Of a DNA stretch of 64,000 nt, positions 8,892 through 57,338 are shown piece after piece. Position 1 is the first letter of the stretch, and the number at the start of each line of letters is the position of its first letter. The notes under the pieces were generated by a model. That model was given only the letters and a program-made list of their open reading frames with translations, was not told the DNA's origin and ran no database searches. The position numbers were made by a program, and so were the translations under genes. The stretch is from contig JBDHIF010000011.1 of the NCBI GenBank assembly GCA_039587535.1, positions 1-64,000 of the forward strand, in the 5' to 3' direction. The DNA is from Gemmatimonadota bacterium (GTDB lineage: Bacteria; Gemmatimonadota; Gemmatimonadetes; Longimicrobiales; Gaopeijiaceae).

Positions 8892-10196
8892 ATGGACCAA
8901 GCACAGCTCATTGGGATCTACCTGGGCGTCGGCGCACTCGCGATCCTCGCGCTCGTGATCTTCGTCAAGGCGAACATCGTGATCTGCGCCCCGAACGAGG
9001 TGGTGATCATCTCGGGCCGGAAGCGGAAGACGAAGGACGGAACCGTCGTCGGCTACCGGCTGATTCGAGGCGGCAGGGGCTTCAAGTGGCCTCTCCTGGA
9101 ATCGGCGCGCCGTCTGCCGCTCACGACGCGCACCGTAGAGATTCGGCCGCACAGGGCCTTGTGCCAGGGAATGATTCCTGTGGATATCGAGGGGCGCGCC
9201 AATGTCAAGCTCGCGGGGCGTGAAGAGGATGGCCTCGAAGCGGGGATCGAGCGATTCCTCGGAAAGGGTGTGGAGGCGATCGACAAGACGGCTCAGCAAG
9301 TGCTCGAGGGTGCGCTACGGGGAGTGATCGCGGGTGTTCGCCCGGAAGAAGCAAACGAGCGCCGGCTCGAGCTGGCGCAGGACGTCGCTCAAAGGGCGCG
9401 TTCCGAGCTGTCTGGTCTGGGCATCGTCCTGGACTTCTTCCAGATCCAAGACCTCTCCGACGGGGCTGGCTATCTGGAGGCGATCGGACGCCGGCGAAAT
9501 GCCGAGGTTCAGCGTGATGCGCAAATCGCCGAGGCAGAGGCCGATGCCGAGGCACGGCAGGTTTCGGCCGAACAGAAGCGGCTCGGCCGTGAGGCCGAGA
9601 TCGCGGCCGAGCAGCTGGTCATCCAGAAAGAGAACGCGCTCGAAGTGCAGCGCGCGAATCTCGCTGCGCTCGAGAACGAGGCCAAGGAGCGGGCGTCGGT
9701 CGCCGGTCACATCGCCCGTGTCGATCGTGAGGTCGAGCTGGAGACGAGAAGGGCTGAGCTCAGCGAGAAGAAGCATGCCGCCGACACCGTCATACCGGCG
9801 CGCGCGCGCTCCGAGGCGGACCGACTGGAGGCGGAGGGGCGAGCCGCCCGGATCCGAGAGGAGGGACGGGCGACCGCCGAGGCCGTGCATGTGATGCGCG
9901 AAGAATGGGATGGCGGCGCAGCGCAGGATCTCTTCATGATTCGTATGTTCCCGGAACTGGTCGACAAAGTGACTCGAGTGGTGGCTGAGAACCTTCGTGT
10001 CGACAAGCTGACGATCCTCGATGGTGGTGGTGACGGTGGTGGAGACGGGTTGCCCAATTACGTCCGAAATCTCACGGGCAGCGCGGTAGCGATGATGGAG
10101 CAGATGAAGAACGCCACGGGGGTCGATCTCGCACGGATTGCGGAACGGGGCCGAGAGGGGCAGTCTCGGGCGGATGTGCCGAGCGAGCTGGACTGA
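8892..10196 (+). CDS. Flotillin-like SPFH/band-7 domain protein (FloT/YqiK family)
   Basis: N-terminal TM, an SPFH domain, a long EA-rich coiled coil (flotillin repeats) and a Gly-rich tail. Confidence 0.75.
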   Translation: MDQAQLIGIYLGVGALAILALVIFVKANIVICAPNEVVIISGRKRKTKDGTVVGYRLIRGGRGFKWPLLESARRLPLTTRTVEIRPHRALCQGMIPVDIEGRANVKLAGREEDGLEAGIERFLGKGVEAIDKTAQQVLEGALRGVIAGVRPEEANERRLELAQDVAQRARSELSGLGIVLDFFQIQDLSDGAGYLEAIGRRRNAEVQRDAQIAEAEADAEARQVSAEQKRLGREAEIAAEQLVIQKENALEVQRANLAALENEAKERASVAGHIARVDREVELETRRAELSEKKHAADTVIPARARSEADRLEAEGRAARIREEGRATAEAVHVMREEWDGGAAQDLFMIRMFPELVDKVTRVVAENLRVDKLTILDGGGDGGGDGLPNYVRNLTGSAVAMMEQMKNATGVDLARIAERGREGQSRADVPSELD

Positions 10197-10220
10197 ACCT
10201 CAAGGTCCTGGAGGCTGCGG

Positions 10221-10628
10221 GTGCATGACATGACGGAAAGCGATTCGGCGGCGCGCAAGGTCGAGGAGGTCCTCAGGCACCACGGACTGTCGCGGGACAG
10301 TGTGCTGTATCGGGAATCTCTTGAGACCTTCGTCGAACGGGATGACGACGGGCATGAGACGGTCACGGCCAATGCTGATCCGTCGGAGGCGGTCGTGAAC
10401 GTCTACGAGGGCGGTCATGTCGCGCTTGCGGCTCAGATCGGAGCGGGGCTCGCGTTCAATGAGCGACGAGACAACCAGTGGCGTGAGGAAGGTCGGGTGA
10501 CCGTGGCCGTGCGGCTCGGAGACGTGCTTGACCAGGGGGGGATGCTGTACCCGGTCGAGTCGGTGATCACTGAGCCCGTCTGGTACGTGACGTTGCCGGC
10601 AGGACGAGTCCGCGTGACACGAACCTAG
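10221..10628 (+). CDS. Hypothetical protein (135 aa), abutting the downstream sensor gene
   Basis: Stop at 10628 and GTG start of the next gene at 10629. No family recognised. Confidence 0.4.
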   Translation: MHDMTESDSAARKVEEVLRHHGLSRDSVLYRESLETFVERDDDGHETVTANADPSEAVVNVYEGGHVALAAQIGAGLAFNERRDNQWREEGRVTVAVRLGDVLDQGGMLYPVESVITEPVWYVTLPAGRVRVTRT

Positions 10629-12497
10629 GTGGCGCTCTCTTTGATACAGGATCGGTCGATCCGAGTCCGCGTCTTCGTCGTCCTCGCCGCCGTCGCGGTT
10701 CTATCCATTGGTGTGGTGGCGGCGGTGTCCTACCGCCTGGGATTGGCCACCCTCGAGCAGCAGGCGTTCGACCGCCTCACCTCGGTGCGTGAGTTGAAGG
10801 GGCGTCAGGTCGAGGGATATTTCCGCACGATCCGAGACCAGGTCGTCACGCACGCCGAGAATCGTATGACCATCGACGCGGTGCGTGAGTTCACGGCCGC
10901 CGCCACGACCCTGGAAGCAGAGCTGGGGGTGCCCGACGCGAGCGAGCGCGAGCTCTCTCTGCGGCTCTACTACCAGGATGAGTTTCTCCCCCGTCTCGGG
11001 GAGCGCGCTGCAGATGCCGGTGCTCTGTCCGCCTACTGGCCCGAGGACGCTCTGGCGCGCTCACTCCAGTACCTGTTCATCAGCGCCAGCCCGTTCGCCG
11101 TCGGTTCGAAGCAACTTCTGGACGATTCGGGTGCCGGGGTCCGGTACGATGACGTTCACGGGCGCTATCACCCCCTTTTCCGGAGTTTTCTCGAGCGGTT
11201 CGGCTACTATGACATCTTCCTCGTGGACGCGGCGACCGACCGAATCGTGTACTCGGTGTTCAAGGAGATCGACTTCGGCACGTCCCTCGAACGGGGTCCG
11301 CATCGAAGCTCGAACCTCGCGGCAGCATACCGAGCGGCACGAGATTCGGGGGTAGACTCATTCACCCACCTGGAGGACTTCGAACCGTATGCGCCATCGT
11401 ATGGTGCTCAAGCTTCCTTCATCGCATCTCCGATCTTCGACGGGGACGAAATCCTGGGCATTCTCGTCTTCCAGCTCCCGCTGGACCGTATCAACGAGTT
11501 GATGACGAGCGAGCGCGCCTGGCGGGACGTGGGGTTGGGGGCGTCGGGCGAAACGTACGTGGTCGGTTCGGACCAGAGGCTTCGAACCGAATCTCGCTTT
11601 CTCATAGAAGATCGCGAGGAGTACCTGGGTGCGATCGAGAGGGGTGGCCTCGACGAGCGTATCGTGCGGTCGATCGAGGCGCAGGGCAGCGCCATCGGGC
11701 TTCAACCGGTCCAGACAAACGGGGTGGAACGAGCGCTTGGGGGTGAAACGGGAACCGACCGCTTCCCCGACTATCGGGGCGCCGAGGTGTTCTCCAGCTA
11801 CCGACCTCTCACGATCCCAGATCTCGAGTGGGTGCTCATGAGCGAGATCGATTCGAGCGAAGCCCTCGCGCCGCTCGTTGCGCAGCGGAACCGTATGCTC
11901 GTGGCGCTGGCCATATTCCTGCCGCTGATCGGCGGACTGGCACTGTGGTTCGCCGGGAATCTCGTTCGCCCCATCGAGGCCCTGTCTCGGAGGGCCGAGG
12001 AACTCGCCAGGGGAGAGCTCGATCACGAGGTCGACATCTCGCGTGGCGACGAGATCGGTGAGCTCGCGCGCAGCTTCGAAGCGATGCGCGTGGCGTTGCG
12101 CGATCAAATCGATCGACAGAATCGTTCGATCGACGCCTTGTCCACGCCCCTGATCCCGATCCATGACGACGTCGTGGTCATGCCGCTCGTGGGTGAGCTC
12201 GACGAGGCGCGATGCGAGAGGGTTCGAGAGTCGCTCACGGCTCAGCTCCACAGCAATGGAGCGCGGTCGGTGATCCTGGATCTTACTGGAGTCTTGCGAC
12301 TGGATGACGATGTGGCGCGCGGGCTGATTCGGATTGCGCGAACTGCCCGTCTCGTGGGCGCGCAGGCCATCGTGTCGGGCGTCCGACCCGAACTCGCTGC
12401 TCAGCTGGCGGACGGCGACGTCGATACACAGGGCATCGTGACGGTGCGCACATTGAGAGACGCGATCGAGAGCGCCACGATGCACCGTGACGGGTGA
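10629..12497 (+). CDS. Membrane sensor with a periplasmic Cache-like domain, HAMP and C-terminal STAS (RsbR-like) domain
   Basis: TM1 and a ~380-aa periplasmic region are followed by TM2, a HAMP helix (..IEALSRRAEELARGELDHEVDISRGDEIGELARSFEAMRVAL..) and STAS (..VVVMPLVGELDEARCERV..ILDLTGV..VSGVRPELA..). Confidence 0.65.
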   Translation: MALSLIQDRSIRVRVFVVLAAVAVLSIGVVAAVSYRLGLATLEQQAFDRLTSVRELKGRQVEGYFRTIRDQVVTHAENRMTIDAVREFTAAATTLEAELGVPDASERELSLRLYYQDEFLPRLGERAADAGALSAYWPEDALARSLQYLFISASPFAVGSKQLLDDSGAGVRYDDVHGRYHPLFRSFLERFGYYDIFLVDAATDRIVYSVFKEIDFGTSLERGPHRSSNLAAAYRAARDSGVDSFTHLEDFEPYAPSYGAQASFIASPIFDGDEILGILVFQLPLDRINELMTSERAWRDVGLGASGETYVVGSDQRLRTESRFLIEDREEYLGAIERGGLDERIVRSIEAQGSAIGLQPVQTNGVERALGGETGTDRFPDYRGAEVFSSYRPLTIPDLEWVLMSEIDSSEALAPLVAQRNRMLVALAIFLPLIGGLALWFAGNLVRPIEALSRRAEELARGELDHEVDISRGDEIGELARSFEAMRVALRDQIDRQNRSIDALSTPLIPIHDDVVVMPLVGELDEARCERVRESLTAQLHSNGARSVILDLTGVLRLDDDVARGLIRIARTARLVGAQAIVSGVRPELAAQLADGDVDTQGIVTVRTLRDAIESATMHRDG

Positions 12498-12559
12498 GGG
12501 ACGGGCCGGCGCTGCGTTGGGGATTCGCGACAGACTGACTTAACACTTCGTAGAGGCGC

Positions 12560-13444
12560 ATGATGCACACCAATCACATCGACTATCGAGAGCTGCTGAC
12601 GCTCTATCGTATCACCGACGCTGATCTTCGGCGCATCGAGGCGTTCGGGGTTCAGGCCGTGAAACGGATGGATGAGCTGGTGGAGCGCTGGTACGCCTGG
12701 CTCGAGGTGTTGCCCGACTACGAAGACTTCTTCAGCGACCCCGAGACTCTGGCCCGAGTCCAGAAACTCCAGGACGGTTACTGGGATTTCTTCATGAAGG
12801 CCGCGGTCGACGACGAGTACGTGTCACGGCGGGTGCTCGTCGGTGAGGCGCACGCTCGAATCGGGCTATCGCTGAACACCTACTTCGCGGGCATGAACAT
12901 GTTTCAGGAGCTCTTCAGCGAGGTCGTACGCGACGGCGATTTCGAGGAAGGCGAGCGTCAGGCCACGATCGATTCCGTCTCCAAACTCCTCCACTTCGAC
13001 ACCGCCATCGTCGTCGATACCTACAACCGGCTGGTGGAGCAGACACTCACGGCTCAGTCGCGGGCGCTCATGGAGATGTCGACACCGGTCACGGAGATAT
13101 GGGAGGGCCTCCTGTTCCTGCCCATCGTCGGGATCATCGACTCGCGCCGGTCGCGCGACATCATGAACGCGACCTTGAGCAAGATCGCGGACACACAGGC
13201 ACGGGTATTCATTCTCGACATCAGCGGGGTCGGTGTGGTGGACACGGCAGTGGCGAACCACCTCATCAAGATTACCCGGGCGACCAAGCTCATGGGTTGT
13301 GAGACCACGATCTCGGGGGTCTCGCCGGCCATCGCTCAGACGATTGTCGATCTGGGTATCGACGTCGGCGAAGTGAAGACGACCGCGACCATGCGCGACG
13401 CTCTGGCCGACGCGGTCGAGCTCGTCCGGCAGGGCCGTCGGTGA
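12560..13444 (+). CDS. rsbR: Stressosome sensor RsbR-like (N-terminal non-haem globin-like domain plus STAS)
   Basis: N-terminal helical sensor domain, then STAS with ..LLFLPIVGIIDSRRSRD..ILDISGVGVVDTAVANHL..ISGVSPAIAQ.. Confidence 0.7.
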   Translation: MMHTNHIDYRELLTLYRITDADLRRIEAFGVQAVKRMDELVERWYAWLEVLPDYEDFFSDPETLARVQKLQDGYWDFFMKAAVDDEYVSRRVLVGEAHARIGLSLNTYFAGMNMFQELFSEVVRDGDFEEGERQATIDSVSKLLHFDTAIVVDTYNRLVEQTLTAQSRALMEMSTPVTEIWEGLLFLPIVGIIDSRRSRDIMNATLSKIADTQARVFILDISGVGVVDTAVANHLIKITRATKLMGCETTISGVSPAIAQTIVDLGIDVGEVKTTATMRDALADAVELVRQGRR

Positions 13445-13458
13445 GTGTGGCGTAGGCG

Positions 13459-13953
13459 ATGACGGATCGCGGCGCCCGGATTCCGCTCCAGCTTGCGCAG
13501 CAGTGCGTGGTGGCGTCGATCCAGGTGGACCTGGACGACCGAGTGCTGGCTGCGTTTCGGGCGGAACTCCTGGAGTTCCTGCGACGCTCCGGCGCGCGCG
13601 GAGTCATTCTCGACTTGTCGGGGGCTGCGGTGATGGACAGAGAGGAGTTCGGCGCTCTCCGAGACACGATGCGCATGGCGCTCCTAATGGGCGCAACGAC
13701 CATCGTTTCGGGGATGCGGCCGGGCGTGGTGTCCGCTCTGATCGACCTCGAGGCCGACACCGACGGGGTGCTGGCGACGGCGACACTCGACGATGCGTTC
13801 GACTTGATGCGAGAGACTCAGTCCGACAGGCACAGAGACGAGGAAGATGAGGTCGGGGAGGTCGACGAACCCCTCGAGGGTACCGGCGCGGAGGCCGTCC
13901 AACGCGATGAGACCGGACCCCACGCGCAGGTGAGTGCGTCGCCCGAACCATGA
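13459..13953 (+). CDS. rsbS: Stressosome scaffold RsbS-like (single STAS domain with acidic tail)
   Basis: ..VVASIQVDLDDRVLAAFRAELLEF..VILDLSGAAVMD..VSGMRPGVV.. Confidence 0.7.
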   Translation: MTDRGARIPLQLAQQCVVASIQVDLDDRVLAAFRAELLEFLRRSGARGVILDLSGAAVMDREEFGALRDTMRMALLMGATTIVSGMRPGVVSALIDLEADTDGVLATATLDDAFDLMRETQSDRHRDEEDEVGEVDEPLEGTGAEAVQRDETGPHAQVSASPEP

Positions 13954-15053
13954 GTCCTCGGTCGGTCAAGCGAATCCGGAGCGATCCGGACGTGAGTCAT
14001 GCGGTGATCGCGGCGTCGGATTTCGCGCGTCGACTCGACTTCAGTGAACTCGACAGTCGCTCCATCGGCACCGTCGTGTCGGAGCTAGCCACCAACATCA
14101 TCAAGTACGCGGTGGACGGCCGAGTAGTGATCGAAGAGGTGACCGCAGGCGACCGTCATGGGATTCAGGTCACCGTAGCCGATCGCGGCCCCGGGATCCC
14201 TAACATTCGTGAGGCACTTCAGGATCACTTCAGTTCGAGCGGGACGCTCGGCCTCGGCCTGCCTGGCGTCAGGCGCATGGTGGACGACTTCGACATCCAA
14301 TCGGAAGTGGGCCGAGGGACCACGGTGGTCGTCCGCAAGTGGCTGGGCGGGCCCTCACCGCGTGCTCGTAGGGCAGAGCTCTTGCAAGGCTCGTCGGCGA
14401 GCGCCGCATTCGCCGAGCGAGGCACCGATCGGGGGAGGGAAAGCTACGAGGCACCGAACGAGCCGGGGAGGCGGTTGCAGATCGGGTACGTGAACCGACC
14501 TTGCAGAGGTGAGCTGCTGAGCGGCGACGGTGTGCTCGTGACCGAGCTCGATGGTGCGGCGCTGATTGTGGTGGTCGATGGGTTGGGGCATGGCCGGGAC
14601 GCGCACGAGGCAGCGAAGGCGGCGACCCGGCTTGTTCGCAAGGAGCCGAACCTCGACCTTTCGGACCTGATGAGGCGGTTGGACGTCCGGTTGCAGGGAA
14701 CCGTCGGCGCGGCACTGTCGTTGTGCTCCATCGATCTCGATTCCGGCCTCGTTCGATACGTTGCGGTCGGGAACACCGTGTTGCGCATCGAGGGTGAGCG
14801 ATCGCGACGAGTCGGAGCCATGACAGGCACTGTCGGTAGTCGGCTCAAGGCGCCGAGGGTCGAGACCGCCGAGCTCTCATCGGAGGATGTGCTCCTGATT
14901 CACACGGATGGGATCTCGGAGCGCCTCACGCTGGAAGACTATCCGCAACTCCGATATCAGAGCCCCCAGACCGTGGCCGAGACGATCTTGTCCCGCTACG
15001 GAAAGAAGCACGACGACGCGACGGTGCTCGCCGCCAGATTCGAAGACTCATGA
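13950..15053 (+). CDS. Fusion of an RsbT-like GHKL serine kinase (HATPase_c) and a PP2C/SpoIIE phosphatase (RsbX-like)
   Basis: The N-terminal ..VSELATNIIKYA..VADRGPGIP..GLGLPGV.. is an anti-sigma-type kinase. The C-terminal PP2C has ..SGDGVL..VVVDGLGHG.. Its start shares ATGA with the rsbS stop. Confidence 0.65.
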   Translation: MSPRSVKRIRSDPDVSHAVIAASDFARRLDFSELDSRSIGTVVSELATNIIKYAVDGRVVIEEVTAGDRHGIQVTVADRGPGIPNIREALQDHFSSSGTLGLGLPGVRRMVDDFDIQSEVGRGTTVVVRKWLGGPSPRARRAELLQGSSASAAFAERGTDRGRESYEAPNEPGRRLQIGYVNRPCRGELLSGDGVLVTELDGAALIVVVDGLGHGRDAHEAAKAATRLVRKEPNLDLSDLMRRLDVRLQGTVGAALSLCSIDLDSGLVRYVAVGNTVLRIEGERSRRVGAMTGTVGSRLKAPRVETAELSSEDVLLIHTDGISERLTLEDYPQLRYQSPQTVAETILSRYGKKHDDATVLAARFEDS

Positions 15054-16729
15054 TCGAGCTCGGCACGATCACGGGGGGAGCGGAGGGTGCCGTTCGGGAC
15101 GCGCGCAGGAAGGTTCACGCGGCTCTCGAGCGGTTGACGGCGGATGACATGCTGGCCAGTCGGATCGCTTCGGTCACCTCCCAGATCTTTCGGGCGATCG
15201 AGCGCGGTGCGAATCCAGGCAGGATCATCGTTCGCTTCGATGAGGCGGGAGCCCAGCCTACGTTCGTTCTCGACCTGATCGGTGTCGGCGGTGAGGTCGA
15301 CGAGGCGACGGCCGCATCGTTCTTCGATCAGGTCGTTTGGGTTCGGGTCGGCGATGTACCGTGCCTGCGGCTTGGTCTCTACATCCACATCGCCCCGGGA
15401 TTGGAGCTTACCGAGCGCCGCGTCGCGGAATTGCGCGGCGTGATCGAGCAGAAGGGGAGGGATGCGCTGATGCAGGAGCTCACCCTGAAGAACCGGGAGC
15501 TCCAGGATTCGTTCGACAACCTCCGTCGGACCACCACGGCCAAAGAGCGGATGGAGAGCGAGCTCAACATCGGTCGGGACATCCAGATGAGCATGCTGCC
15601 GCTCGAATTTCCGGCGTTCCCGCACCGCACCGACTTTACGGTATTCGCTACCCTCGAGCCTGCGCGGGAGGTCGGAGGGGATTTCTACGACTTCTTCCTC
15701 CTCGACGAGGATCGCTTCTGTTTCTGTGTTGGAGATGTCTCCGGCAAAGGGGTGCCTGCGGCACTCTTCATGGCCGTCACCAAGACGCTTATCAAGTCGC
15801 GCGCGACCAACGATTTCTCACCAGCCAGCATTCTCACGCACGTCAACGACGAGATCTCGACCAACAACGACTCGGCGATGTTTGTGACGCTCTGGCTGGG
15901 CATCCTGGACGTGACGTCCGGAGCGCTGGAGTACACGAACGCCGGACATAACCCGCCTTATCTCCTGCGCCACACGGGGGAGGTGGTGCGGTTGGACGAG
16001 CGGCACGGTCCCGTGCTCGGTGCTGTGGACGGACTCGTCTATTCCGAGGGCTCCGGTCAGTTGGAGCGCGGTGACGTCGTCTTCGTGTACACCGACGGTG
16101 TCACCGAGGCGATGGACCCGGACGGGCAGCTCTACGAGGAGGACCGCCTCGTTGAGGTCCTTCGGGCGAGCGATATCGATTCGGTGGAGTCTTTGGTTCG
16201 TGCATCGACCGACGACGTGTGGCGTTTTCAGGCCGACGCGGAACAGGCCGACGACGTCACCGTGCTGGCGGTCGAGTTCTCCGGCCGGCCCGGTGGCTCC
16301 GAAGGCGTCCACATTCTCGAGCTGTCAGTTGCGAATCGACTCGAAGAGATCGACTCCGTCAACGAATCCTTCGAGGCGTTCGCAGCCGAGCACGGGCTCC
16401 CGGAGAAGGTCCGGAGAAGTATGAAGCTCGTTTTCGACGACTTGTTGAACAACGTGATCTCGTACGCATACGAGGACGAAGAGGAGCATCGCATCGGCGT
16501 GCGCGTCGAGTTGTCCTCCGATCGGGTCGCCGTACGCATCAGTGACGACGGGCACCCGTTCAATCCTTTCGGCCGGAATGCGCCGGACACGGCGCTGGCC
16601 CTGGGTGCGAGGGAGATTGGAGGTCTCGGTATCCACCTCGTGCAGAACCTGATGGACGAGGTCTCGTACACGCGGCGAACCGATGAAAACGTCGTTCTGC
16701 TGGTGAAATACCTATCAAATTCGGAATGA
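15050..16729 (+). CDS. RsbU-like PP2C phosphatase fused to a C-terminal RsbW-like GHKL kinase domain (N-terminal regulatory domain plus coiled coil)
   Basis: The PP2C has ..GGDFYDFF..CVGDVSGKGVPAALFMA..YTDGVTEA.. The C-terminal HATPase_c has ..DDLLNNVISYAY..ISDDGHPFNPF..GLGIHLV.. Confidence 0.65.
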   Translation: MIELGTITGGAEGAVRDARRKVHAALERLTADDMLASRIASVTSQIFRAIERGANPGRIIVRFDEAGAQPTFVLDLIGVGGEVDEATAASFFDQVVWVRVGDVPCLRLGLYIHIAPGLELTERRVAELRGVIEQKGRDALMQELTLKNRELQDSFDNLRRTTTAKERMESELNIGRDIQMSMLPLEFPAFPHRTDFTVFATLEPAREVGGDFYDFFLLDEDRFCFCVGDVSGKGVPAALFMAVTKTLIKSRATNDFSPASILTHVNDEISTNNDSAMFVTLWLGILDVTSGALEYTNAGHNPPYLLRHTGEVVRLDERHGPVLGAVDGLVYSEGSGQLERGDVVFVYTDGVTEAMDPDGQLYEEDRLVEVLRASDIDSVESLVRASTDDVWRFQADAEQADDVTVLAVEFSGRPGGSEGVHILELSVANRLEEIDSVNESFEAFAAEHGLPEKVRRSMKLVFDDLLNNVISYAYEDEEEHRIGVRVELSSDRVAVRISDDGHPFNPFGRNAPDTALALGAREIGGLGIHLVQNLMDEVSYTRRTDENVVLLVKYLSNSE

Positions 16730-17197: not shown

Positions 17198-19786
17198 GTG
17201 AATATCGTTATTGCGGACAGCGTCGTTCGTGGAACGCTGAGCCCGGAGCGGCAGTTCCACGGCATTCCCTCGAACCTCGGTGCCCGCGAGATCGCCCGGC
17301 TCATGGGCCGGGGTCGAGCATATGGCGAAGGCCCCCTGCCGTCGATTATCCGAGCAGCGGCGGCATCAGGCGGGCGCACGGGTCTCGTGCTGCTCCGTGA
17401 GGTGGCACCGCAGGACGAGGCAGGCGCGTCGAACGGTGTATCGGGAGCTCGTGAGGCGCTCGCGGAATGGGTCGACCCGGTTCGATCCGTAGCCGCTGCG
17501 GCATCGGCGCTCGATTGCGCTCCCGGGCGAATTCCCTGGCGCACGCTGATCAAAAGGATCGCCGGCGTGGCGGGTGTCGAAGAGAGTTCCGTAGCCGACG
17601 GTATCGCCGACCTCGGCTTCCTCGTGGTGGGATGCCAAACGGAGGAGCGGATCCAGGCGATCGCGACATTCCTGAGGACTGTCCTCGGTTTCGAGCGCGT
17701 CGCTGTAAGTCCCCACCTCGTAGGGAGTGCCACGGCCGAAGCGCACTACGCGGTGCTACGCCACAACCTGCCTCGGTCCGGCGTGAACGTACTTCTCGAT
17801 CTGGGTGAGGCAGCCAGGTGGGTCGACATCGATCCCGATCGTGCCGGGCTCGCGGGAGGTGCGCCTTGCGTGATCGGGCCGCGTGAAGCTCGCGAGCAGA
17901 TGGAGGCCGACGCCCAGCGCATCGTCCAATTGATCTGCATGCACTGGACGAGGGCGAAACTGCGCGCTCTGGCAGGAGGGTTCAGCGGGAGTCTGCTTTT
18001 CCTCGCCGAGGGCTTGAAGGGCGAGGCGCGGACTGAGCCGATGGTGATCAAGATCGACGCCTTCGCTCAGATGCGACGTGAGCTCGACGGCTACCATCAG
18101 GTGAAGGACCTCTTTGGCAAGCACGTGCCCACGTTCGGGTACCCGGTCCGTCAGGGCAGCCTGCTCGGTGTCGGGATGGAGCTGGCAGCGATGAAGGGCG
18201 ACCCAACTACGCTGCAGGACGACTTCGAGAAGGCGGACTCAGAGTCTCTGCTGGTACGCTTTCTCACCCGGCTCGAGAAATCTCTGGACCTCCTGTCTGA
18301 AAAGCTCTACGGCAACACGCTAGAGCGTGGCAGCGTCGCCCCGTTCCGGATTTTCGGGCTGCACTCGGCTCAACAGATCGTGTGGCTGAGGGAGAACGCT
18401 ACGATCATTCAAGGCTATTTCGATGAGTCCAGCCACTCCGTTGAAAACGTCGATCTGGACCAGCTCGAGAATGTGGCACGCTTGATAACGCGGAATCCCG
18501 ATGCGGTCCAGTCCGAGCTCTGTCTGCAGCACGGCGACCTGAATCTCGCCAACGTCATCTGCGACGAAGGCGACAACGTGTGGTTCATCGACTGGACGCA
18601 CAGTGGAATCCACCCGCTGGAACTCGACTTCGCGAAGCTCGAGAACGACGTGAAGTTCGTGATGAGCAAGGACTTCGATGTCGATGATCTACCCCGGCTG
18701 CACGCATTCGAAGAGTACCTTCTCAACCAGAGGATCCCGGGTTCCGCAGAAGAGCTTCCGGACGCGTTGAAGTTCGCGAAGTGGGATCTGCGCTTCCGGA
18801 AGATCCTCGCCGCCGTGCGTCTGATTCGTCAGCGCTGTGACCGGCTCAAAGAGGGTGATGATTGGCTGGTCTATCGGGTGGCCTTGCTGCGATATGCCAT
18901 GCACACGCTCAGCTTCGATCAGCGCAGGGGAGGGGGTGAGTGTGACGAGACTCAGCTCATGTATGCCCTGTACTCGTGCGAGTCGCTCTCGCTTTCGCTC
19001 GTTGCCGACGATTTTCACCTCAAAATTCGCGCCGAGCGGCCCGCGTCGTACCCCGAACGCCAGCGCATCTCGATCGACGAGTCGCTGTGGCTTCTGGATT
19101 GCGAAGATTACGCCCCTCCCTACCACGTCGATCAGACCGTGTTGGAAGCGGCGGGTGATCGCGGCGACAAGGGGTGGGCGGATCCGGAAGAGGTGGACTC
19201 TGCCGTGCTGGCCGAGCGACCGGCACGCTTCCGGGACGATGAGGGACGGCCGCTGAACCCGCGTGGCCGCACGGGGATCGCTGGCCGGGGACTTCTGGGC
19301 CTATGGGGCGCCAACGCGTCGGTCGTGGGTGTCGTGCTGCGTACCAGCGCGGTGACGGGTGAACTCCAGATCCTGCTCGGTTCCAGCGAGGACGACCCGA
19401 CGCTCCAGGTGCCGAAGGGGTTCCTCTTCCCGGACGAACAACCAGAAGACGGTCTTCTCCGCGTCATGCAGGTGGAAGCCGGTTGGCGACCTCAGGGGGC
19501 GCCGATCCCGTTGAGTGACGGCTACGCGTACGACGCCCGCCAGACGGACCACGCCTGGGTCGAGCAGCGAGCGTATCTGTTCGACCCTGCGGAGGAGGAC
19601 GTTCCGGATCTCTTCGACCCGGCGGGTGATCTCGACGAGGTCTCGTGGTGGCCCCTGGATGTGGAGACGATGACCCGGATTCCGGCGGGTCAGGCTCCGG
19701 TGATCAACGAGGCGCTGGAAGCCGCACGCGGGGCGGGGCGGCTCGACGAAGAGCTGGCGGGGCGACTGATCCGCAGGGCCGTCTGA
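17198..19786 (+). CDS. Three-domain protein combining an N-terminal isochorismatase-like domain, a choline/ethanolamine-kinase (APH-fold) domain and a C-terminal NUDT9-like Nudix domain with a degenerate Nudix box
   Basis: The kinase region has HGDLNLANVICDEGDNVWFIDWTHSG (Brenner motif plus DxE/W). The Nudix region has ..NPRGRTGIAGRGLLGLWGANASVVGVV.. (NUDT9 signature) and the box GFLFPDE-x7-RVMQVEAGW (REx2EE degraded to RVMQVE). The N-terminal region has ..LVVGCQTEERIQAI.. resembling the G-x-C/T-D motif region of cysteine hydrolases but lacking the Cys. Confidence 0.5.
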   Translation: MNIVIADSVVRGTLSPERQFHGIPSNLGAREIARLMGRGRAYGEGPLPSIIRAAAASGGRTGLVLLREVAPQDEAGASNGVSGAREALAEWVDPVRSVAAAASALDCAPGRIPWRTLIKRIAGVAGVEESSVADGIADLGFLVVGCQTEERIQAIATFLRTVLGFERVAVSPHLVGSATAEAHYAVLRHNLPRSGVNVLLDLGEAARWVDIDPDRAGLAGGAPCVIGPREAREQMEADAQRIVQLICMHWTRAKLRALAGGFSGSLLFLAEGLKGEARTEPMVIKIDAFAQMRRELDGYHQVKDLFGKHVPTFGYPVRQGSLLGVGMELAAMKGDPTTLQDDFEKADSESLLVRFLTRLEKSLDLLSEKLYGNTLERGSVAPFRIFGLHSAQQIVWLRENATIIQGYFDESSHSVENVDLDQLENVARLITRNPDAVQSELCLQHGDLNLANVICDEGDNVWFIDWTHSGIHPLELDFAKLENDVKFVMSKDFDVDDLPRLHAFEEYLLNQRIPGSAEELPDALKFAKWDLRFRKILAAVRLIRQRCDRLKEGDDWLVYRVALLRYAMHTLSFDQRRGGGECDETQLMYALYSCESLSLSLVADDFHLKIRAERPASYPERQRISIDESLWLLDCEDYAPPYHVDQTVLEAAGDRGDKGWADPEEVDSAVLAERPARFRDDEGRPLNPRGRTGIAGRGLLGLWGANASVVGVVLRTSAVTGELQILLGSSEDDPTLQVPKGFLFPDEQPEDGLLRVMQVEAGWRPQGAPIPLSDGYAYDARQTDHAWVEQRAYLFDPAEEDVPDLFDPAGDLDEVSWWPLDVETMTRIPAGQAPVINEALEAARGAGRLDEELAGRLIRRAV

Positions 19787-41271: not shown

Positions 41272-43770
<2,499 letters not shown>

Positions 43771-52579: not shown

Positions 52580-53188
52580 ATGTTCGATTGGCTTGCCTGG
52601 CGCCGTACCGCGGGCTTTTTGACCCTGGCGGTCGTCATGACGGGGCTCCCCCGATCCGCCGAGGCCCAGCGCCGGATCCAGCCCGTGGACTCGCTCCGCG
52701 AGATCCAGTCGATCTCCCCTCGGAGCGGGCCGATCGGAACGAGAGTCGAGATCTATTCCGACAACATGCCATTGGAGGCCACGTACCACGTCGGGGTCGG
52801 TGCCACACGGTCCGGGTTCGAATCCCTGTACGAGGCGACCCAGCTCGACCTCGGGACCATCTCCGTGACGCTTCCGATTCCTGAGGAGGTCGGCTGGGAC
52901 CGCGCCATCGTCTTCGTCGCGTTCAACGCGATCTTCAGCCCCATCGCGATGTCCAAGCCCTTCCACGTCACGGACGGGGACGGGCGAATCCAGCGCACGG
53001 GGACGGTGACCCGCACCGCGGGCCCTTGTGCGACGTTCCGCGACCTGGACCGTTTCGACTACGAGCTTACGGGTGAGACCGGCGGGCTCGAGATCGGTCA
53101 GGAGGCTGTGATCTCGGCGGAGTACCTGGGGGAGAGCGACTGCGTCGACGGGGCCGTGATCCGGGTCCTCGGGGTGAGCTCGCCCTGA
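52580..53188 (+). CDS. Secreted hypothetical protein
   Basis: Start trimmed to MFDWLAWRRTAGFLTLAVVMTGLPRSAEAQ. No family. Confidence 0.35.
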   Translation: MFDWLAWRRTAGFLTLAVVMTGLPRSAEAQRRIQPVDSLREIQSISPRSGPIGTRVEIYSDNMPLEATYHVGVGATRSGFESLYEATQLDLGTISVTLPIPEEVGWDRAIVFVAFNAIFSPIAMSKPFHVTDGDGRIQRTGTVTRTAGPCATFRDLDRFDYELTGETGGLEIGQEAVISAEYLGESDCVDGAVIRVLGVSSP

Positions 53189-53297: not shown

Positions 53298-55058
53298 TCA
53301 GTTCATGCCGCCCATGGACGCGCGGATGGCGTCCGCGGTGACGCCGGCACGGAAGGCCACGATCTCACTCGCGAGATCGACGGCTCGACGGCGGTCGGCG
53401 ATGGAGACCCCGTTGATGTGCGCCTGTCGGGTGCGCAGTCGCTCCTCGTAGCGAACCGACGACGGATCCTGAACGAACATGTTCAACGTGATCACCGGAT
53501 CGTCGTGCAGGTTGTCGCTCTCACCAGGGACGAGGCCGCGCTCCCGCATGTGGGCTCTGACGCTGCGGTAGTCGTAGTACTCCGGAATGAAGTGCGCCGC
53601 CGCGCTCCCGGACCACGATGCGTTCAACCGCTGCGCCACCGCGTCCATGCCACGCTGGTTCCCGCCGCTGTCACCGATGAAGACCACGTGCTCGAAGCCG
53701 TGGGCCCGGAGGCTGTTCGCCATGTCCGTAAGTATGCCCTCGAAGGTCTCCTGCCGGACGCTGATCGTGCCGGGGCTGGTCATGTGTCCCGAGGGCGGCT
53801 CGATGCTTCCTTCCGGGACGAAGGGGATGACCGGCGCACAGAGGGCGTTCCCGAGCTCCCGGGCGATGGCGTCGCAGTTCGCAGTGAGGACGTAGTTGTG
53901 CTTCCCGGTGACGAGCCAGGGCCCGTTGGGCTCTAGGCCCCCCGTGGGGATGATGGCGGTCGTCTTGCCGTCCGCGAGGGCGTCGCGGACGTCCATCCAC
54001 GTCATCTCCTCGAGCCAGACGGTAGTGGCTGCCGGGAGCGGGTTCGGCGTATCCACGCAGTTGTACGCGTTGTCACGGCAATCCCCCCCGCCCATGGAGC
54101 GCGGGTCGGGTTCACGGCGTTGGAAGTTGCCACCCCCCGAGGGGCGCTCGCGAACGGGTGGTGGGAACGTGCCGCGATACGCGATCGCGTTGCGAATATG
54201 ACGCGCCGTTTCTCGGGCCCGGAAGTCGACGATCTCCCGGCCCCATTCCAGGGCCTGGGCTCGGTCGGCCAGCGAGACCCCGTTGATGGTGGCCAGCCCC
54301 GCTTCCACGCGCTCGTCATACCGGACGGAGTACGGGTCCGCCACGAACATGTTCAGAGTGATGATCGCATCGTCGTGGAGCTGGTCGCCATCGCCCTCTT
54401 CGAGGCCCCGGAAGGCCATGTAGTCCCGCACGGTACCGTAGTCGTAGTATCCCTGGACGTGGGCCACCACGGTGCCGTCCCAAATCTCGTTCAGCCGCTC
54501 GGCCACGGAACGCTGTCCGCCCTGGTTTCCACCGCTGTCCCCGATGAAGATGATGTTCCGGAACCCGTGGATCTTCAGGCTGTGGGCGATGTCCGTGAGA
54601 AGGGCCTCGTACGTATCCTGGGTCGCAGAGAGGGTCCCCGGACTCATCATATGTCCGCTGGGGGGATCGATCGAGCCCTCCGGCACGAGCTTCACGATGG
54701 GTGCGCACAGGGCGTCTCCGAGCTCGCGGGCGATGGCGTCACAGTTGGCGCGGAGCACATAGTTGTGCTTTCCCGTGGCAAGCCAGGGGCCGTTGGGCTC
54801 CACACCCCCTGTGGCGATGATGGCCGTGGTCTTGCCGTCCGCGAGGGCGTCGCGGACATCCATCCAGGTCATCTCCTCGATCCACACGGTGTTCGCCGGG
54901 GGAAGGGGATTCGGCGTGTCCGCACAGTTGTAGACGTTCTCGGCGCATTCCCCGCCACCCATCGAGCGGTTCGGCTCCTGGGCCCGCGCGTCCATGGGGG
55001 CCGGGGTGAGGAGAGCTCCGGTGAGGATCAGGGCAGCGACGTCACAGCGGGTCCGCAT
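53298..55058 (-). CDS. Secreted tandem-duplicated creatininase-family (creatinine-amidohydrolase-like) protein with substituted metal-ligand motifs
   Basis: Two ~290-aa repeats with ~70% identity (TVWIEEMTWMDVRDALADGKTTAIIATGGVEPNGPW.. / TVWLEEMTWMDVRDALADGKTTAIIPTGGLEPNGPW..). G.VEPNGPWL corresponds to family G.xEQHGPHLP, and IGDSGGN corresponds to NGHGGN. Confidence 0.45.
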   Translation of the reverse strand: MRTRCDVAALILTGALLTPAPMDARAQEPNRSMGGGECAENVYNCADTPNPLPPANTVWIEEMTWMDVRDALADGKTTAIIATGGVEPNGPWLATGKHNYVLRANCDAIARELGDALCAPIVKLVPEGSIDPPSGHMMSPGTLSATQDTYEALLTDIAHSLKIHGFRNIIFIGDSGGNQGGQRSVAERLNEIWDGTVVAHVQGYYDYGTVRDYMAFRGLEEGDGDQLHDDAIITLNMFVADPYSVRYDERVEAGLATINGVSLADRAQALEWGREIVDFRARETARHIRNAIAYRGTFPPPVRERPSGGGNFQRREPDPRSMGGGDCRDNAYNCVDTPNPLPAATTVWLEEMTWMDVRDALADGKTTAIIPTGGLEPNGPWLVTGKHNYVLTANCDAIARELGNALCAPVIPFVPEGSIEPPSGHMTSPGTISVRQETFEGILTDMANSLRAHGFEHVVFIGDSGGNQRGMDAVAQRLNASWSGSAAAHFIPEYYDYRSVRAHMRERGLVPGESDNLHDDPVITLNMFVQDPSSVRYEERLRTRQAHINGVSIADRRRAVDLASEIVAFRAGVTADAIRASMGGMN

Positions 55059-55130
55059 TCGATTCTCCAGCGAGCAGGGTGGGGGTCGAGGCGCACAGCA
55101 GAGTCGCGAGGCCGACGTACCGACGCCAGG

Positions 55131-57338
55131 TCAGAACGCCTTCAGGAAGGTCACCTTCACAACGCCGGTCCGCCGCTGCCACCTGGACGCGCGTGGGTCC
55201 AAGAGGTCTCCGGTCAGGTAGCCGGTGTCGAGCACCAGGAACAGATCCGAGCCGGGGGTATGGATCCAGTTGATGCGTATGCTCGCCTGGAGGGACTCCG
55301 AGACGTCGTCCCACTGGATGAGCGCGTTGGCGAACAGTGAGCGGGAGACCGCCCCGAGCACGTCGAGGCTGAGCACGTTGGTGTTGAACCTCCCGTCCGG
55401 GACAGGTAGGTCGATCTCGTTGCGGCTGGCGGAGCCCGAGAGCGTCAGGTGCGGGCCCGTTTTCCACATCAGTCCGCCGCCGTACTGCGTTCGCGTGCCG
55501 TTCCAGAAGTCACCGACCTGCAGGGAGATGTTGCCCGACAGGGTCCGACTCTGGTCCGTACGGATCGAGCCGTCCACCGAGGCGAACGTGTAGTCTCCGG
55601 CCGGTAGCGTCCGACTCTGGATGGTCGCGGCATCGGCCAGACGCTCCGAGCTCCGCCGCAGGTTCACCATGGCGAAGCCCCCGGCCTGGAAGGACAACAT
55701 GTTGTGGAGCAGCAGGCTCGACGACTGGCGGACACCGTCTTGCCCGTCGATCACGTCGCCGCCCAGGGAAGTCACCAGAGATCGAGCCCAGCCGCTGCCC
55801 TCGAACCGGGGGGTCCAGGCGACATTTCCGCCGAGCTTCACCATGTCCCTGCGGCGAACGAATCCCAGCTCGGGTCGGAAGTCCGCTCCGACGCTGAGGA
55901 AATCCGCGCTGGCGGACCACGATGATCTGGGCCGGATCTGAAGCGCGATGCTGCCGGCCCCGGCGGCGTTGCGCTCCGCGTCCCAAACGCCTGCGACCCA
56001 GGCGTCCAGAGCGCTGCTCCCCCAGAAACGGATCTGTGCGTCGACGCCTGCCGCTCGATTGTAGCTTCCGCCCCCCTGGAGGTTGGTGACGATGCCACCC
56101 ACGGTGCTCCTGGGTAGCACGTCCGCCTTCATGCGGACCACCGAGTGGTTCGCGCCGGGGATCGTGACGTCACCCAGGACGGTCTCTTCCGTCTGGAGGC
56201 TCAACGCGCCGATGGAAAACTTGCCCAATTGGCCCGTTACGCGCCCCCCACCCACGATCTGGCTGGTGAGCCCGATACGGCGGCTGAAGAAGAGCTCCGT
56301 ATCCCGCGCGTTCCCGAATCCGAACAGGCCCGCGCGCTCGAGGAAGAACTCGCGCTTCTCCGGAAAGAACAGATTGAAGCGCGTCAGGTTGACCTGAACG
56401 TTGTCCGACTCGACCTGGGCGAAATCCGTATTCCAGGTGAGGTCCATCGTGAGGTTCGACGTGATCGCGTACTTGAAGTCCACGCCTATGTCGCGTAGCA
56501 CGTCGGTCTCGGCACCTGACGAACCCTGGGCCCGCTGGGCACCCCCGATGGCGAAGGGCTTCAGCTCCATGTGTCGACCCCGTCGAAGCCCCTGGAGGCC
56601 GCTCAGGGCAGCGAACTGCGACACCTGGGTGATGCCAGCCCGGTACCGCTGCGGGATATGGGGCCAGAAGACCTGCTCGTTCTTTCGCCGGATCGCTCGT
56701 CGGATGGCGATCCCCATGGTCGGTGCGTCGGCGTCCGAGAAACGGATCGTGGTGAACGGGATGGCCACCTCAGCCGTCCATCCGTCCTCGTCGATACGCG
56801 CTTCGCTCTCGTAGACCCCCTCCCAGTTCCAGTCGTCCAAGACCAGGCTCTCGTCCGTGAAGAGCGCGTCACCCTGGGTGCCGAAGGGGTTGATCTCGAA
56901 GATGTAGGCGTTACGGCGGTCGTGGTACGTGTCCAGGACGATCCAGAAATGGTCGTCCTGATCGATGCGCCCTTCGCGATGGAGGATGCTCTTTCGGATG
57001 GCGGTTGGGTCGGAGTCGTGTAGGCGGAGGCCGAAATAGAGATGATCGGCGTCGTAGGCGATCCGGACCTCAGTGCGCTCCGTCGGGGTGCCGCCGTCCA
57101 CGGGATCCCGCTGACGGAACTCGGTGATGGGCTCGACGAGCTGCCAAGCGTCATCGTCGAGCACGCCGTCTACGACCGGTGGCGTGGTGACATGGGTCGC
57201 GGTCGCGGCCCGGTCGGTTACCCCGGCTTCCTGGGCGGCGACCGGGGCAGCCGCCAGGCATGCCAGCTGGAGGACAGTCACGCCCAGCGCCGCGCCGGGG
57301 CGCAGATCGGTTCGGCGTGTCTCTTGCTCCCCCATCAT
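55131..57338 (-). CDS. DUF5916 / CBM9-like-domain outer-membrane-associated protein
   Basis: Signal peptide. The N-terminal CBM9-like domain has ..IDGVLDDDAWQLVEPITEFRQRDPVDG..DHLYFGLRLHD.. and is followed by a large beta-rich C-terminal domain. Confidence 0.55.
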   Translation of the reverse strand: MMGEQETRRTDLRPGAALGVTVLQLACLAAAPVAAQEAGVTDRAATATHVTTPPVVDGVLDDDAWQLVEPITEFRQRDPVDGGTPTERTEVRIAYDADHLYFGLRLHDSDPTAIRKSILHREGRIDQDDHFWIVLDTYHDRRNAYIFEINPFGTQGDALFTDESLVLDDWNWEGVYESEARIDEDGWTAEVAIPFTTIRFSDADAPTMGIAIRRAIRRKNEQVFWPHIPQRYRAGITQVSQFAALSGLQGLRRGRHMELKPFAIGGAQRAQGSSGAETDVLRDIGVDFKYAITSNLTMDLTWNTDFAQVESDNVQVNLTRFNLFFPEKREFFLERAGLFGFGNARDTELFFSRRIGLTSQIVGGGRVTGQLGKFSIGALSLQTEETVLGDVTIPGANHSVVRMKADVLPRSTVGGIVTNLQGGGSYNRAAGVDAQIRFWGSSALDAWVAGVWDAERNAAGAGSIALQIRPRSSWSASADFLSVGADFRPELGFVRRRDMVKLGGNVAWTPRFEGSGWARSLVTSLGGDVIDGQDGVRQSSSLLLHNMLSFQAGGFAMVNLRRSSERLADAATIQSRTLPAGDYTFASVDGSIRTDQSRTLSGNISLQVGDFWNGTRTQYGGGLMWKTGPHLTLSGSASRNEIDLPVPDGRFNTNVLSLDVLGAVSRSLFANALIQWDDVSESLQASIRINWIHTPGSDLFLVLDTGYLTGDLLDPRASRWQRRTGVVKVTFLKAF

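Follow-up and report, generated by a model that had tools for sequence, protein, structure and literature searches.

The gene at 53298..55058 on the minus strand of the window (the whole stretch of DNA analyzed, 64,000 nt) raised the question of what a creatininase-like protein does when it carries a predicted export signal, contains the fold twice and has replaced most of the residues that bind the metals in creatininase. Its sequence pointed to what is probably a periplasmic hydrolase, built as a covalent pseudo-dimer, which would act with a mononuclear metal on a nitrogen-containing substrate. All features of the gene described below lie on the minus strand.

Gene and domain architecture

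The gene was complete and consisted of one uninterrupted open reading frame of 586 codons plus stop, as shown by the ORF list, the Pfam PF02633 match and a protein in public data (P0001) that was 100% identical to the encoded 586-aa protein. It began with ATG, and a Shine-Dalgarno-like GGAGA motif, seen directly in the sequence, was located 5 nt 5' of this codon (55064..55068). The original prediction had placed the protein in the creatininase family, and the Pfam search confirmed this with a match to PF02633 (Creatininase) of 183 bits against a gathering cut-off of 31.3 (E=8e-54), which fell into two stretches. The predicted 3D fold also superposed on solved structures of the family.

The creatininase-fold domain of repeat 1 covered aa 33-293 (54180..54962), as delimited by half-versus-half BLASTP, the Pfam stretch and pLDDT, which was mostly 81-98 in 10-residue blocks of the AF2 model. 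Repeat 2 covered aa 322-586 (53301..54095) according to Pfam, BLASTP, the AF2 model and phmmer against 1q3k/1j2t. The two were joined by a Pro/Gly/Arg-rich linker of aa 294-321 (54096..54179), recognized from a dip in pLDDT (block mean of 52 at aa 301-310, and values under 50 at aa 307-311) and from the consensus sequence; together with this linker, repeat 1 spanned aa 33-321. The linker ended in PDPRS, a motif that also stands before repeat 1 in homologues. Both repeats opened with MGGGxC..YNCxDTPNPLP, which in repeat 1 forms an N-terminal extension, and they were 67% identical over 261 aa (BLASTP, E=8e-133) and 72% identical in DNA over ~705 nt (blastn). This agreed with the predicted internal duplication, in which two repeats of ~290 aa and about 70% identity were said to share this opening. 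The pTM of 0.89 of the AF2 model suggested that the arrangement of the two domains is fixed.

Predicted export signal and cysteines

A predicted Sec signal peptide occupied aa 1-26 (54981..55058), with MRTR, a hydrophobic core and ARA before Q, based on sequence, pLDDT and a heuristic. The N-terminus MRTRCDVAALILTGALLTPAPMDARA/QEP, in which the stroke marks the end of the predicted signal, had the three regions (n, h and c) typical of Sec signal peptides, and the AF2 model was disordered over aa 1-28 (pLDDT <50). The heuristic was our own rather than a dedicated predictor and demanded that a hydrophobic segment precede the start of the conserved domain. It flagged signal-like N-termini in 115 of 118 tandem members and 57 of 67 single-domain relatives, while the cytoplasmic creatininase control was negative. 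The N-termini of homologues were of the classic MK..hydrophobic..AxA type. An export-signal-like N-terminus is present, as had been claimed, and we infer that the protein is exported by Sec and is periplasmic or secreted.

Four cysteines per domain were invariant in 239-240 of the 240 tandem-family domains. Among clade domains, C74 and C86 occurred together in 45, were both missing in 114 and were mixed in only 4. Such paired, covarying residues would be expected to form disulfides in the tandem protein.

A rebuilt active site

Residues were mapped to creatininase 1j2t by phmmer, hmmsearch and hhalign, with the sequence and numbering of 1j2t verified. Metal 1 is reportedly bound by Glu34, Asp45 and His120, and metal 2 by His36, Asp45 and Glu122 (structures of Yoshimoto 2004 and Beuth 2003). 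The alignments revealed that Glu34 and His178 were the only active-site residues of creatininase kept in the tandem protein. In repeat 1, the EPNG motif (aa 87-90, 54789..54800), invariant in 240/240 tandem-family domains, kept E87 at the position of E34 and had N89 in place of H36. The GKHN motif (54762..54773) placed H98 at the position of the bridging ligand D45, where 94% of clade domains have His. The GDSGGN motif (aa 173-178, 54525..54542) placed D174 at G119, S175 at H120 and G177 at E122; the position of D174 held Asp in 89% of clade domains and Glu in another 6%. The LHDD motif (54369..54380) placed H228 on H178 with an hhalign probability of 98.7%. The same pattern was found in repeat 2, with EPNG (aa 376-379, 53922..53933; E376 and N378), GKHN (53895..53906; H387), GDSGGN (aa 462-467, 53658..53675; D463, S464 and G466) and LHDD (53499..53510), whose H518 also aligned with H178 by hhalign. 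Histidine was present at this last position in 92-100% of domains.

The replacements H36->N, D45->H, H120->S and E122->G, together with a new invariant Asp at creatininase position 119, were thus common to both halves. The metal-1 set retained its Glu (E87/E376) and had H98/H387 for Asp45 and S175/S464 for His120, the metal-2 set was replaced entirely, and four of the five ligand positions of the binuclear centre were changed. With these ligands replaced in both halves, a binuclear metal centre seems unlikely to form, and what each half still has is a Glu/His/Asp (+His) site. D174/D463 may serve as a metal ligand, a role put forward only by inference because the ungapped alignment places the Asp at G119 and not at ligand position 120. 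The original prediction had described EPNG and GDSGGN motifs with lost His ligands, and both motifs and both losses were found in each half. The extent of the change was understated, since Asp45 and Glu122 were also replaced and an Asp was gained at 119. The site looks rebuilt, possibly as a mononuclear one, rather than simply deprived of two histidines.

Age and distribution of the tandem family

Repeat 1 shared 74.9% identity with repeat 1 of homologues and repeat 2 shared 74.5% with repeat 2, while repeat 1 and repeat 2 shared 63-65%. Since orthologous halves (~75%) were closer than paralogous halves (~64%), the duplication is old. The tandem architecture, at 583-622 aa, was found in more than 110 clusters from independent assemblies, complete chromosomes included. 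Relatives were present in 473 species-level genomes, and the best 80 loci among them all came from MAGs (Gemmatimonadota, Acidobacteriota and sponge-associated). A wider clade with the remodelled site and signal-like N-termini contained 302 clusters (50% identity, E<1e-30), most of them made up of proteins of 280-330 aa with one domain. The earlier argument that creatininase-family enzymes are normally cytoplasmic and single-domain, which made the tandem protein seem a rarity, was right in that an export-like signal and altered motifs are present, but overstated how peculiar they are to this protein, because the two features define a large and mostly single-domain clade. Literature searches on the clade, its export and its FA_hydroxylase fusions returned nothing relevant and no characterized member. 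The tandem protein is a member of a widespread, uncharacterized enzyme group of uncultured soil and marine bacteria.

Gene neighborhood

The upstream neighbor on the same strand, separated by a 72-nt gap, was a gene for a secreted protein with DUF5916 and CBM9 domains (55131..57338, minus strand; Pfam). The two genes may be co-transcribed. No promoter or terminator consensus was found between them, and a promoter/terminator scan around the tandem gene performed no better than shuffles. The DUF5916 gene was not counted as a functional partner because its adjacency was kept only in the closest relatives (loci L001, L002, L006, L007 and L009). A second 735-aa ORF of the window (41272-43479), considered as a relative of the DUF5916 gene, was unrelated and is a catalase-peroxidase.

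Gene context was not conserved across the tandem family. A flavin amine oxidase with a Tat signal lay directly upstream on the same strand in 19 of the 80 related loci, and an amidase with a Tat signal (NF006006, above cut-off) lay directly downstream on the same strand, likewise in 19/80, the two neighbors being counted separately. A secreted single-domain paralogue, an SSS transporter, a TonB receptor and a tricorn-amidohydrolase were also found nearby in related loci. Within the window there was no amine oxidase, amidase, single-domain paralogue, TonB receptor or tricorn-amidohydrolase, and the only partner-like gene was a distant SSS homologue 20 kb away. In one protein (P0130), a single N-terminally truncated representative, a creatininase-like domain was fused to a related amidase (40% identity, E 9e-64).

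Conservation and alternative explanations

The E, H, D and H residues of the site, two Arg and the four Cys were ~100% conserved in the tandem family (240/240 domains, both halves). In 163 divergent clade domains, E was kept in 97%, H66 in 94%, D142 in 89% (with Glu in a further 6%), H197 in 92% and R215 in 92%. A different metal or substrate, or a function in binding, as first suggested, would be consistent with the data, and the conservation favors catalysis over mere binding.

The serine of GDSGGN, found at the former H120 position in 78% of clade domains, could instead make the protein a metal-independent serine hydrolase, with S175/S464 as the nucleophile, H228/H518 as the base and D229 or E87 completing the triad. 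GDSGG does match G-x-S-x-G, the “nucleophile elbow” that links a strand to a helix, and in the AF2 model the motif of repeat 1 sits in a strand-turn-helix (strand 168-173, helix 176-192). However, 24 of 95 complete clade domains had another residue in place of the Ser, and the E/H/D/H quartet was intact in 18 of these 24. We down-weighted this mechanism to an improbable one because the Ser is dispensable in those 18 domains.

A periplasmic pseudo-enzyme or protein that only binds a ligand, with the fold retained but catalysis and the binuclear site both gone, has a similarly low probability. The replaced positions hold near-invariant ionizable residues (H66, D142 and H197 above, D142 reaching 95% with Glu), and these are strictly conserved in both halves despite the old duplication, whereas in the clade's other two-domain architectures just one half is intact and the other has decayed. 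The amine oxidase and amidase genes in flanking positions and the amidase fusion also suggest an enzymatic step.

It is very unlikely that the protein is a true creatinine amidohydrolase, or an enzyme of the MftE, IolN or ArfB type, that is merely exported. Public annotation does name it [quoted passage not shown], and its best sequence and structure matches are still creatininase, but the identity is only 17-22% and the equivalog scores fell far below their cut-offs: 71.4 bits against 235 for creatininase (TIGR04448), 68.2 against 245 for IolN (NF041098) and 62.4 against 172 for MftE (TIGR03964). With four of five ligand positions changed as well, the tandem protein is almost certainly not a creatininase. 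No mycofactocin (mft), inositol or riboflavin genes were found among the neighbors, which argues against the other three types. Finally, a frameshift or assembly error that fused two adjacent paralogous genes can be dismissed with near certainty, as can a duplication that is local and recent, and the single gene originally proposed stands, since the frame is intact, the length is kept across the homologous clusters of independent assemblies, the linker is conserved, orthologous halves are closer than paralogous ones and the halves are only 72% identical in DNA.

Proposed mechanism

The evidence tips somewhat in favor of an exported, disulfide-stabilized pseudo-dimer that carries a rebuilt single-metal site and hydrolyzes C-N bonds. 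An ancient tandem duplication put two creatininase-fold domains into one polypeptide. The PDB entries of solved family members contain 3, 6 or 12 chains (6 for creatininase, which is a homo-hexamer), consistent with homo-oligomers. In the tandem protein, the two domains probably pack as a covalent pseudo-dimer in place of the usual homo-oligomer of the fold. Each domain holds the same rebuilt site, in which E87/E376 and a second-shell or catalytic H228/H518 are retained, H98/H387 replaces the bridging Asp45, D174/D463 is gained beside the former His120, and the metal-2 ligands His36 and Glu122 are gone. A single metal ion held by Glu/His/Asp may activate a water molecule for hydrolysis of a C-N bond of the amide, lactam or formamide type, with the conserved His as a possible proton shuttle. 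Each polypeptide would thus have two independent sites. The substrate would be other than creatinine, probably a small nitrogen-containing compound handled outside the cytoplasm. Members of the PF02633 fold hydrolyze diverse C-N and C-C bonds (PMC10885120, PMC9478397), so a new substrate is plausible.

A broader proposal is offered tentatively, and we doubt that it will hold in full. The exported EQNG/GKHN/GDSGGN clade might be an unrecognized enzyme class in which the change of Asp45 to His and the Asp gained beside the former His120 turn the binuclear site into one that is mononuclear or metal-free. Its tandem members might then be covalent two-site pseudo-dimers working in a hitherto undescribed periplasmic route of nitrogen-compound catabolism with the Tat amine oxidase and amidase of uncultured Gemmatimonadota and Acidobacteriota.

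Databases file hundreds of proteins of this clade as “creatininase family” or “creatinine amidohydrolase”, and such labels can make metabolic reconstructions of soil, marine and sponge-associated MAGs report creatinine degradation falsely. The altered binuclear ligand set corrects this annotation. The clade is also a clean natural case of active-site remodelling on a fixed fold (Asp to His, an Asp gained, one metal site probably lost), together with a probable move into the periplasm and the fusion of gene copies of an enzyme that normally forms oligomers. Should the substrate be found, the nitrogen metabolism of abundant uncultured phyla would gain an extracytoplasmic C-N hydrolase step, which some lineages would couple to an amine oxidase and an amidase that are exported as well.

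Comparison with known systems

Creatininase (Pseudomonas putida CrnA; PDB 1J2T, 1Q3K and 3A6x; EC 3.5.2.10) was ~20% identical to the tandem protein. It is cytoplasmic with one chain per subunit, whereas the tandem protein is predicted to be exported and has two fused domains. The PDB entries of creatininase contain a Mn/Zn binuclear centre, in contrast to the replacements at H36, D45, H120 and E122 described above, and the tandem protein has in addition an N-terminal Cys-containing extension and a second Cys pair per domain. 3NO4 (Nostoc punctiforme) and 3LUB (Bacteroides fragilis), uncharacterized “creatinine amidohydrolases” from structural genomics, each have a single domain (254-267 residues). 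They shared 18-21% identity with the tandem protein, and the sequence matches covered the N-terminal half only. MftE (mycofactocin peptidase), IolN (3-dehydro-scyllo-inosose hydrolase) and the ArfB/BrbF-type formamide hydrolases, which are cytoplasmic and single-domain, share PF02633 with the tandem protein. The uncharacterized single-domain exported paralogues with EQNG, GKHN and GDSGGN motifs (~298 aa, for example at 9559-10455 of locus L014) had the same remodelled site, a predicted signal peptide and the C74/C86 pair. They were ~47% identical to each tandem half, but contained one domain and lacked the MGGGxC..YNC extension. In other genomes, these paralogues were often located 2-4 kb from the tandem gene.

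Sequence, fold, and family membership of the tandem protein

The tandem gene was one ORF of 586 codons (53298-55058, minus strand) with an ATG start and a GGAGA motif 5 nt upstream of it. In the encoded protein, an N-terminal segment, MRTRCDVAALILTGALLTPAPMDARA|QEP, preceded repeat 1 (residues 33-321) and repeat 2 (residues 322-586). The two repeats shared 67% identity over 261 residues (E=8e-133) and 72% in their DNA. Each repeat opened with MGGGxC..YNCxDTPNPLP and contained all four of the motifs EPNG, GKHN, GDSGGN, and LHDD. The original prediction of a duplicated creatininase-family protein with altered motifs was accurate, as Pfam PF02633 (Creatininase) matched the protein in two stretches (E=8e-54) and the repeats lay in a single ATG-initiated frame, not in two separate genes.

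The AlphaFold2 model, computed from 63 aligned tandem-family sequences, was confident (mean pLDDT 87.5, pTM 0.89), with pLDDT below 50 only at residues 1-28 and 307-311. Foldseek returned 24 significant matches in the PDB, all of them creatininase-family chains with a probability of 1.00 each, and the protein truly belongs to this fold. The NCBIfam equivalog scores were far below the cut-offs for creatininase (71 versus 235), the 3-dehydro-scyllo-inosose hydrolase IolN (68 versus 245), and the mycofactocin peptidase MftE (62 versus 172), so these three identities were rejected. The tandem protein is outside every characterised enzyme group of the fold, and a search for literature on an exported creatininase-fold clade found none.

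Predicted export, duplication, and related proteins of the clade

Repeat 2, used as the query of a full HMMER scan, retrieved 3339 clusters (50% identity) with E<1e-3, of which 302 had E<1e-30. These relatives were mostly single-domain proteins of 280-330 residues with signal-like N-termini, and most carried the signature E-x-N-G / GKHN / GDSGGN. The original interpretation, a secreted, duplicated creatininase-family protein with replaced metal-binding residues, was essentially right; because the single-domain proteins mostly share the predicted export and the ligand replacement, these are traits of a large, unnamed subfamily and not of the tandem gene alone. Every homologue inspected had a classic MK-hydrophobic-AxA start. 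An earlier, looser export heuristic was dropped since it failed the cytoplasmic creatininase control; the one retained, which asked for a hydrophobic stretch ahead of the conserved domain, was negative for that control and positive for 115 of 118 tandem proteins and 57 of 67 single-domain relatives. Each domain of the tandem family had four invariant cysteines, and C74 and C86 covaried across the clade (both present in 45 domains, neither in 114, mixed in 4). Together with the signal-like N-termini, these results make the predicted export of the tandem protein well supported, though not proven.

The tandem architecture (583-622 residues) was found in more than 110 clusters (90% identity), and relatives were encoded in 473 species-level genomes. 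The best 80 of these loci were all from MAGs. Most of these were Longimicrobiales or other Gemmatimonadota; the rest were Acidobacteriota (Vicinamibacterales and Terriglobia) and MAGs from sponges that were labelled Gammaproteobacteria. Since orthologous halves from different phyla (74.9% identity for repeat 1, 74.5% for repeat 2) were more alike than repeat 1 and repeat 2 within a protein (63-65%), the duplication, judged from these identities, is older than the spread of the family. Solved creatininase-family structures contained 3, 6, or 12 chains per PDB entry, as homo-oligomers would give, and in other two-domain clade proteins the conserved histidines were lost in one half while the other was intact. 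These observations and the pTM of 0.89 suggest that the tandem may be a covalent pseudo-dimer; the tandem family kept both sites. The half-degenerate proteins included P0122, P0186, P0192, and P0213 (cluster representatives), which suggests that a degenerate partner domain was used repeatedly in the clade.

Membrane FA_hydroxylase (di-iron) domains were a recurrent fusion partner of clade domains, in either order (P0136, P0185, P0207, and P0230), which hints that some members act on lipid-like substrates. Other partners were amidase-signature, HpcH-type aldolase, and RcpC domains. In P0164, a sigma-54 response regulator (REC-AAA-HTH) apparently carried a creatininase-like domain at its C-terminus, either as a genuine fusion or through an error of gene calling or assembly.

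Genomic context

Directly upstream of the tandem gene, after a 72-nt gap, was a gene for a secreted DUF5916 and CBM9 protein of 735 residues (55131-57338, minus strand), an adjacency whose conservation was limited to the closest relatives (L001, L002, L007, and L009; on the other side in L006). A catalase-peroxidase with two peroxidase-domain stretches (41272-43479, minus strand) matched this protein in length (735 residues) but was unrelated to it. Convergent with the tandem gene was a gene for a hypothetical, putatively secreted protein of 202 residues with a signal-like N-terminus (52583-53188, plus strand), which had no match in Pfam and whose counterparts beside the tandem gene (L001, L002, and L007-L009) were 62-100% identical; a class IV aminotransferase gene lay beyond it, downstream of the tandem gene. 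These neighbours were common only to the closest relatives.

Elsewhere in the window, a dCache-HAMP-STAS protein (10629-12497, plus strand) and a SpoIIE phosphatase fused to a HATPase_c_2 anti-sigma-type kinase (15050-16729, plus strand) belonged to a stretch (10629-16729) that looks like a partner-switching regulatory module. In an 862-residue protein (17198-19786, plus strand), a NUDIX domain and an APH-type kinase region accompanied TCAD9 (ternary-complex-associated domain 9), an architecture linked to systems with a predicted role in conflict or signalling. The G+C content showed a modest step, from 61-64% in the first ~20 kb to 63-69% beyond.

Clustering of the neighbour genes over the 80 best-matching loci revealed a recurrent arrangement that differed from that of the window and occurred in one subclade of Longimicrobiales and sponge MAGs. 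A Tat-signal flavin amine oxidase lay directly upstream of the tandem gene in 19 of the 80 loci, and a Tat-signal amidase (NF006006 above cut-off) directly downstream on the same strand, also in 19. A secreted single-domain paralogue of the clade was also part of the arrangement; 31 of the loci had an additional family member nearby, in most cases a protein of ~298 residues with the clade signature. A tricorn-amidohydrolase was present in 16, an SSS transporter in 15, a TonB-dependent receptor in 14, and a GMC oxidoreductase in 13. In L010-L027 and L003, which had a matching layout, the GMC oxidoreductase, tricorn-amidohydrolase, amine oxidase, tandem gene, and amidase were accompanied by the paralogue and the receptor, and this cluster may serve the use of nitrogen compounds in the periplasm. 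In one representative, P0130, an amidase 40% identical to the neighbouring amidase (E 9e-64) was fused to a creatininase-like domain. The recurrent neighbours and this fusion would link part of the family to extracytoplasmic C-N bond catabolism; none of the recurrent partners was found in the present window.

The rebuilt active site

Residues were mapped onto Pseudomonas putida creatininase, whose sequence and numbering were checked against 1J2T, and phmmer, a profile of 34 clade domains, and hhalign (probability 98.7%, 232 columns) all gave the same mapping. Glu34 (E87 in repeat 1, E376 in repeat 2) and His178 (H228, H518) were kept; His36 was replaced by N89 and N378, Asp45 by H98 and H387, Gly119 by D174 and D463, His120 by S175 and S464, and Glu122 by G177 and G466. 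Creatininase binds metal 1 through Glu34, Asp45, and His120 and metal 2 through His36, Asp45, and Glu122, as is established from its structures (Beuth 2003; Yoshimoto 2004; Yamashita 2010). Titles of PDB entries among the Foldseek matches ("Creatininase Mn"; "E122Q mutant, Zn-Zn type") agreed with these roles. A binuclear centre is very unlikely in the tandem protein because both ligands specific to metal 2 were lost and the bridging carboxylate was replaced by an imidazole.

According to the alignments, a Glu/His/Asp set and the His178 equivalent are left at the site, and these residues were 100% conserved across 240 tandem-family domains, in both repeats alike. Among 163 wider-clade domains from 50%-identity representatives, conservation was 97% for Glu, 94% for His66, 89% for Asp142 (plus 6% Glu), 92% for His197, and 92% for Arg215; the former His36 position was Asn in 83%, and the former His120 position was Ser in 78% and still His in 10%. 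By this measure, the four residues are not drifting. The rebuilt site is most likely mononuclear.

As a minor alternative, confined to the tandem family itself, the serine of GDSGG could be the nucleophile of a serine hydrolase, since the motif matches G-x-S-x-G and lies in a modelled strand-turn-helix (strand 168-173, helix 176-192) like a nucleophile elbow. However, this serine was absent from 24 of 95 complete clade domains, and because 18 of the 24, among them intact halves of other two-domain families, retained the Glu/His/Asp/His quartet, the serine, on present alignments, is not the essential residue of the clade.

With a mononuclear site preferred, the tandem protein is a probably exported, anciently duplicated creatininase-fold member, probably a pseudo-dimer, and our best guess is that it would hydrolyse a small nitrogen-containing compound as its periplasmic substrate. 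The main immediate value of the analysis is that a misleading annotation is corrected and a tractable case of active-site remodelling is flagged: compared with creatininase, the tandem protein has His in place of the bridging Asp45 and Asp at Gly119, and lacks His36 and Glu122.
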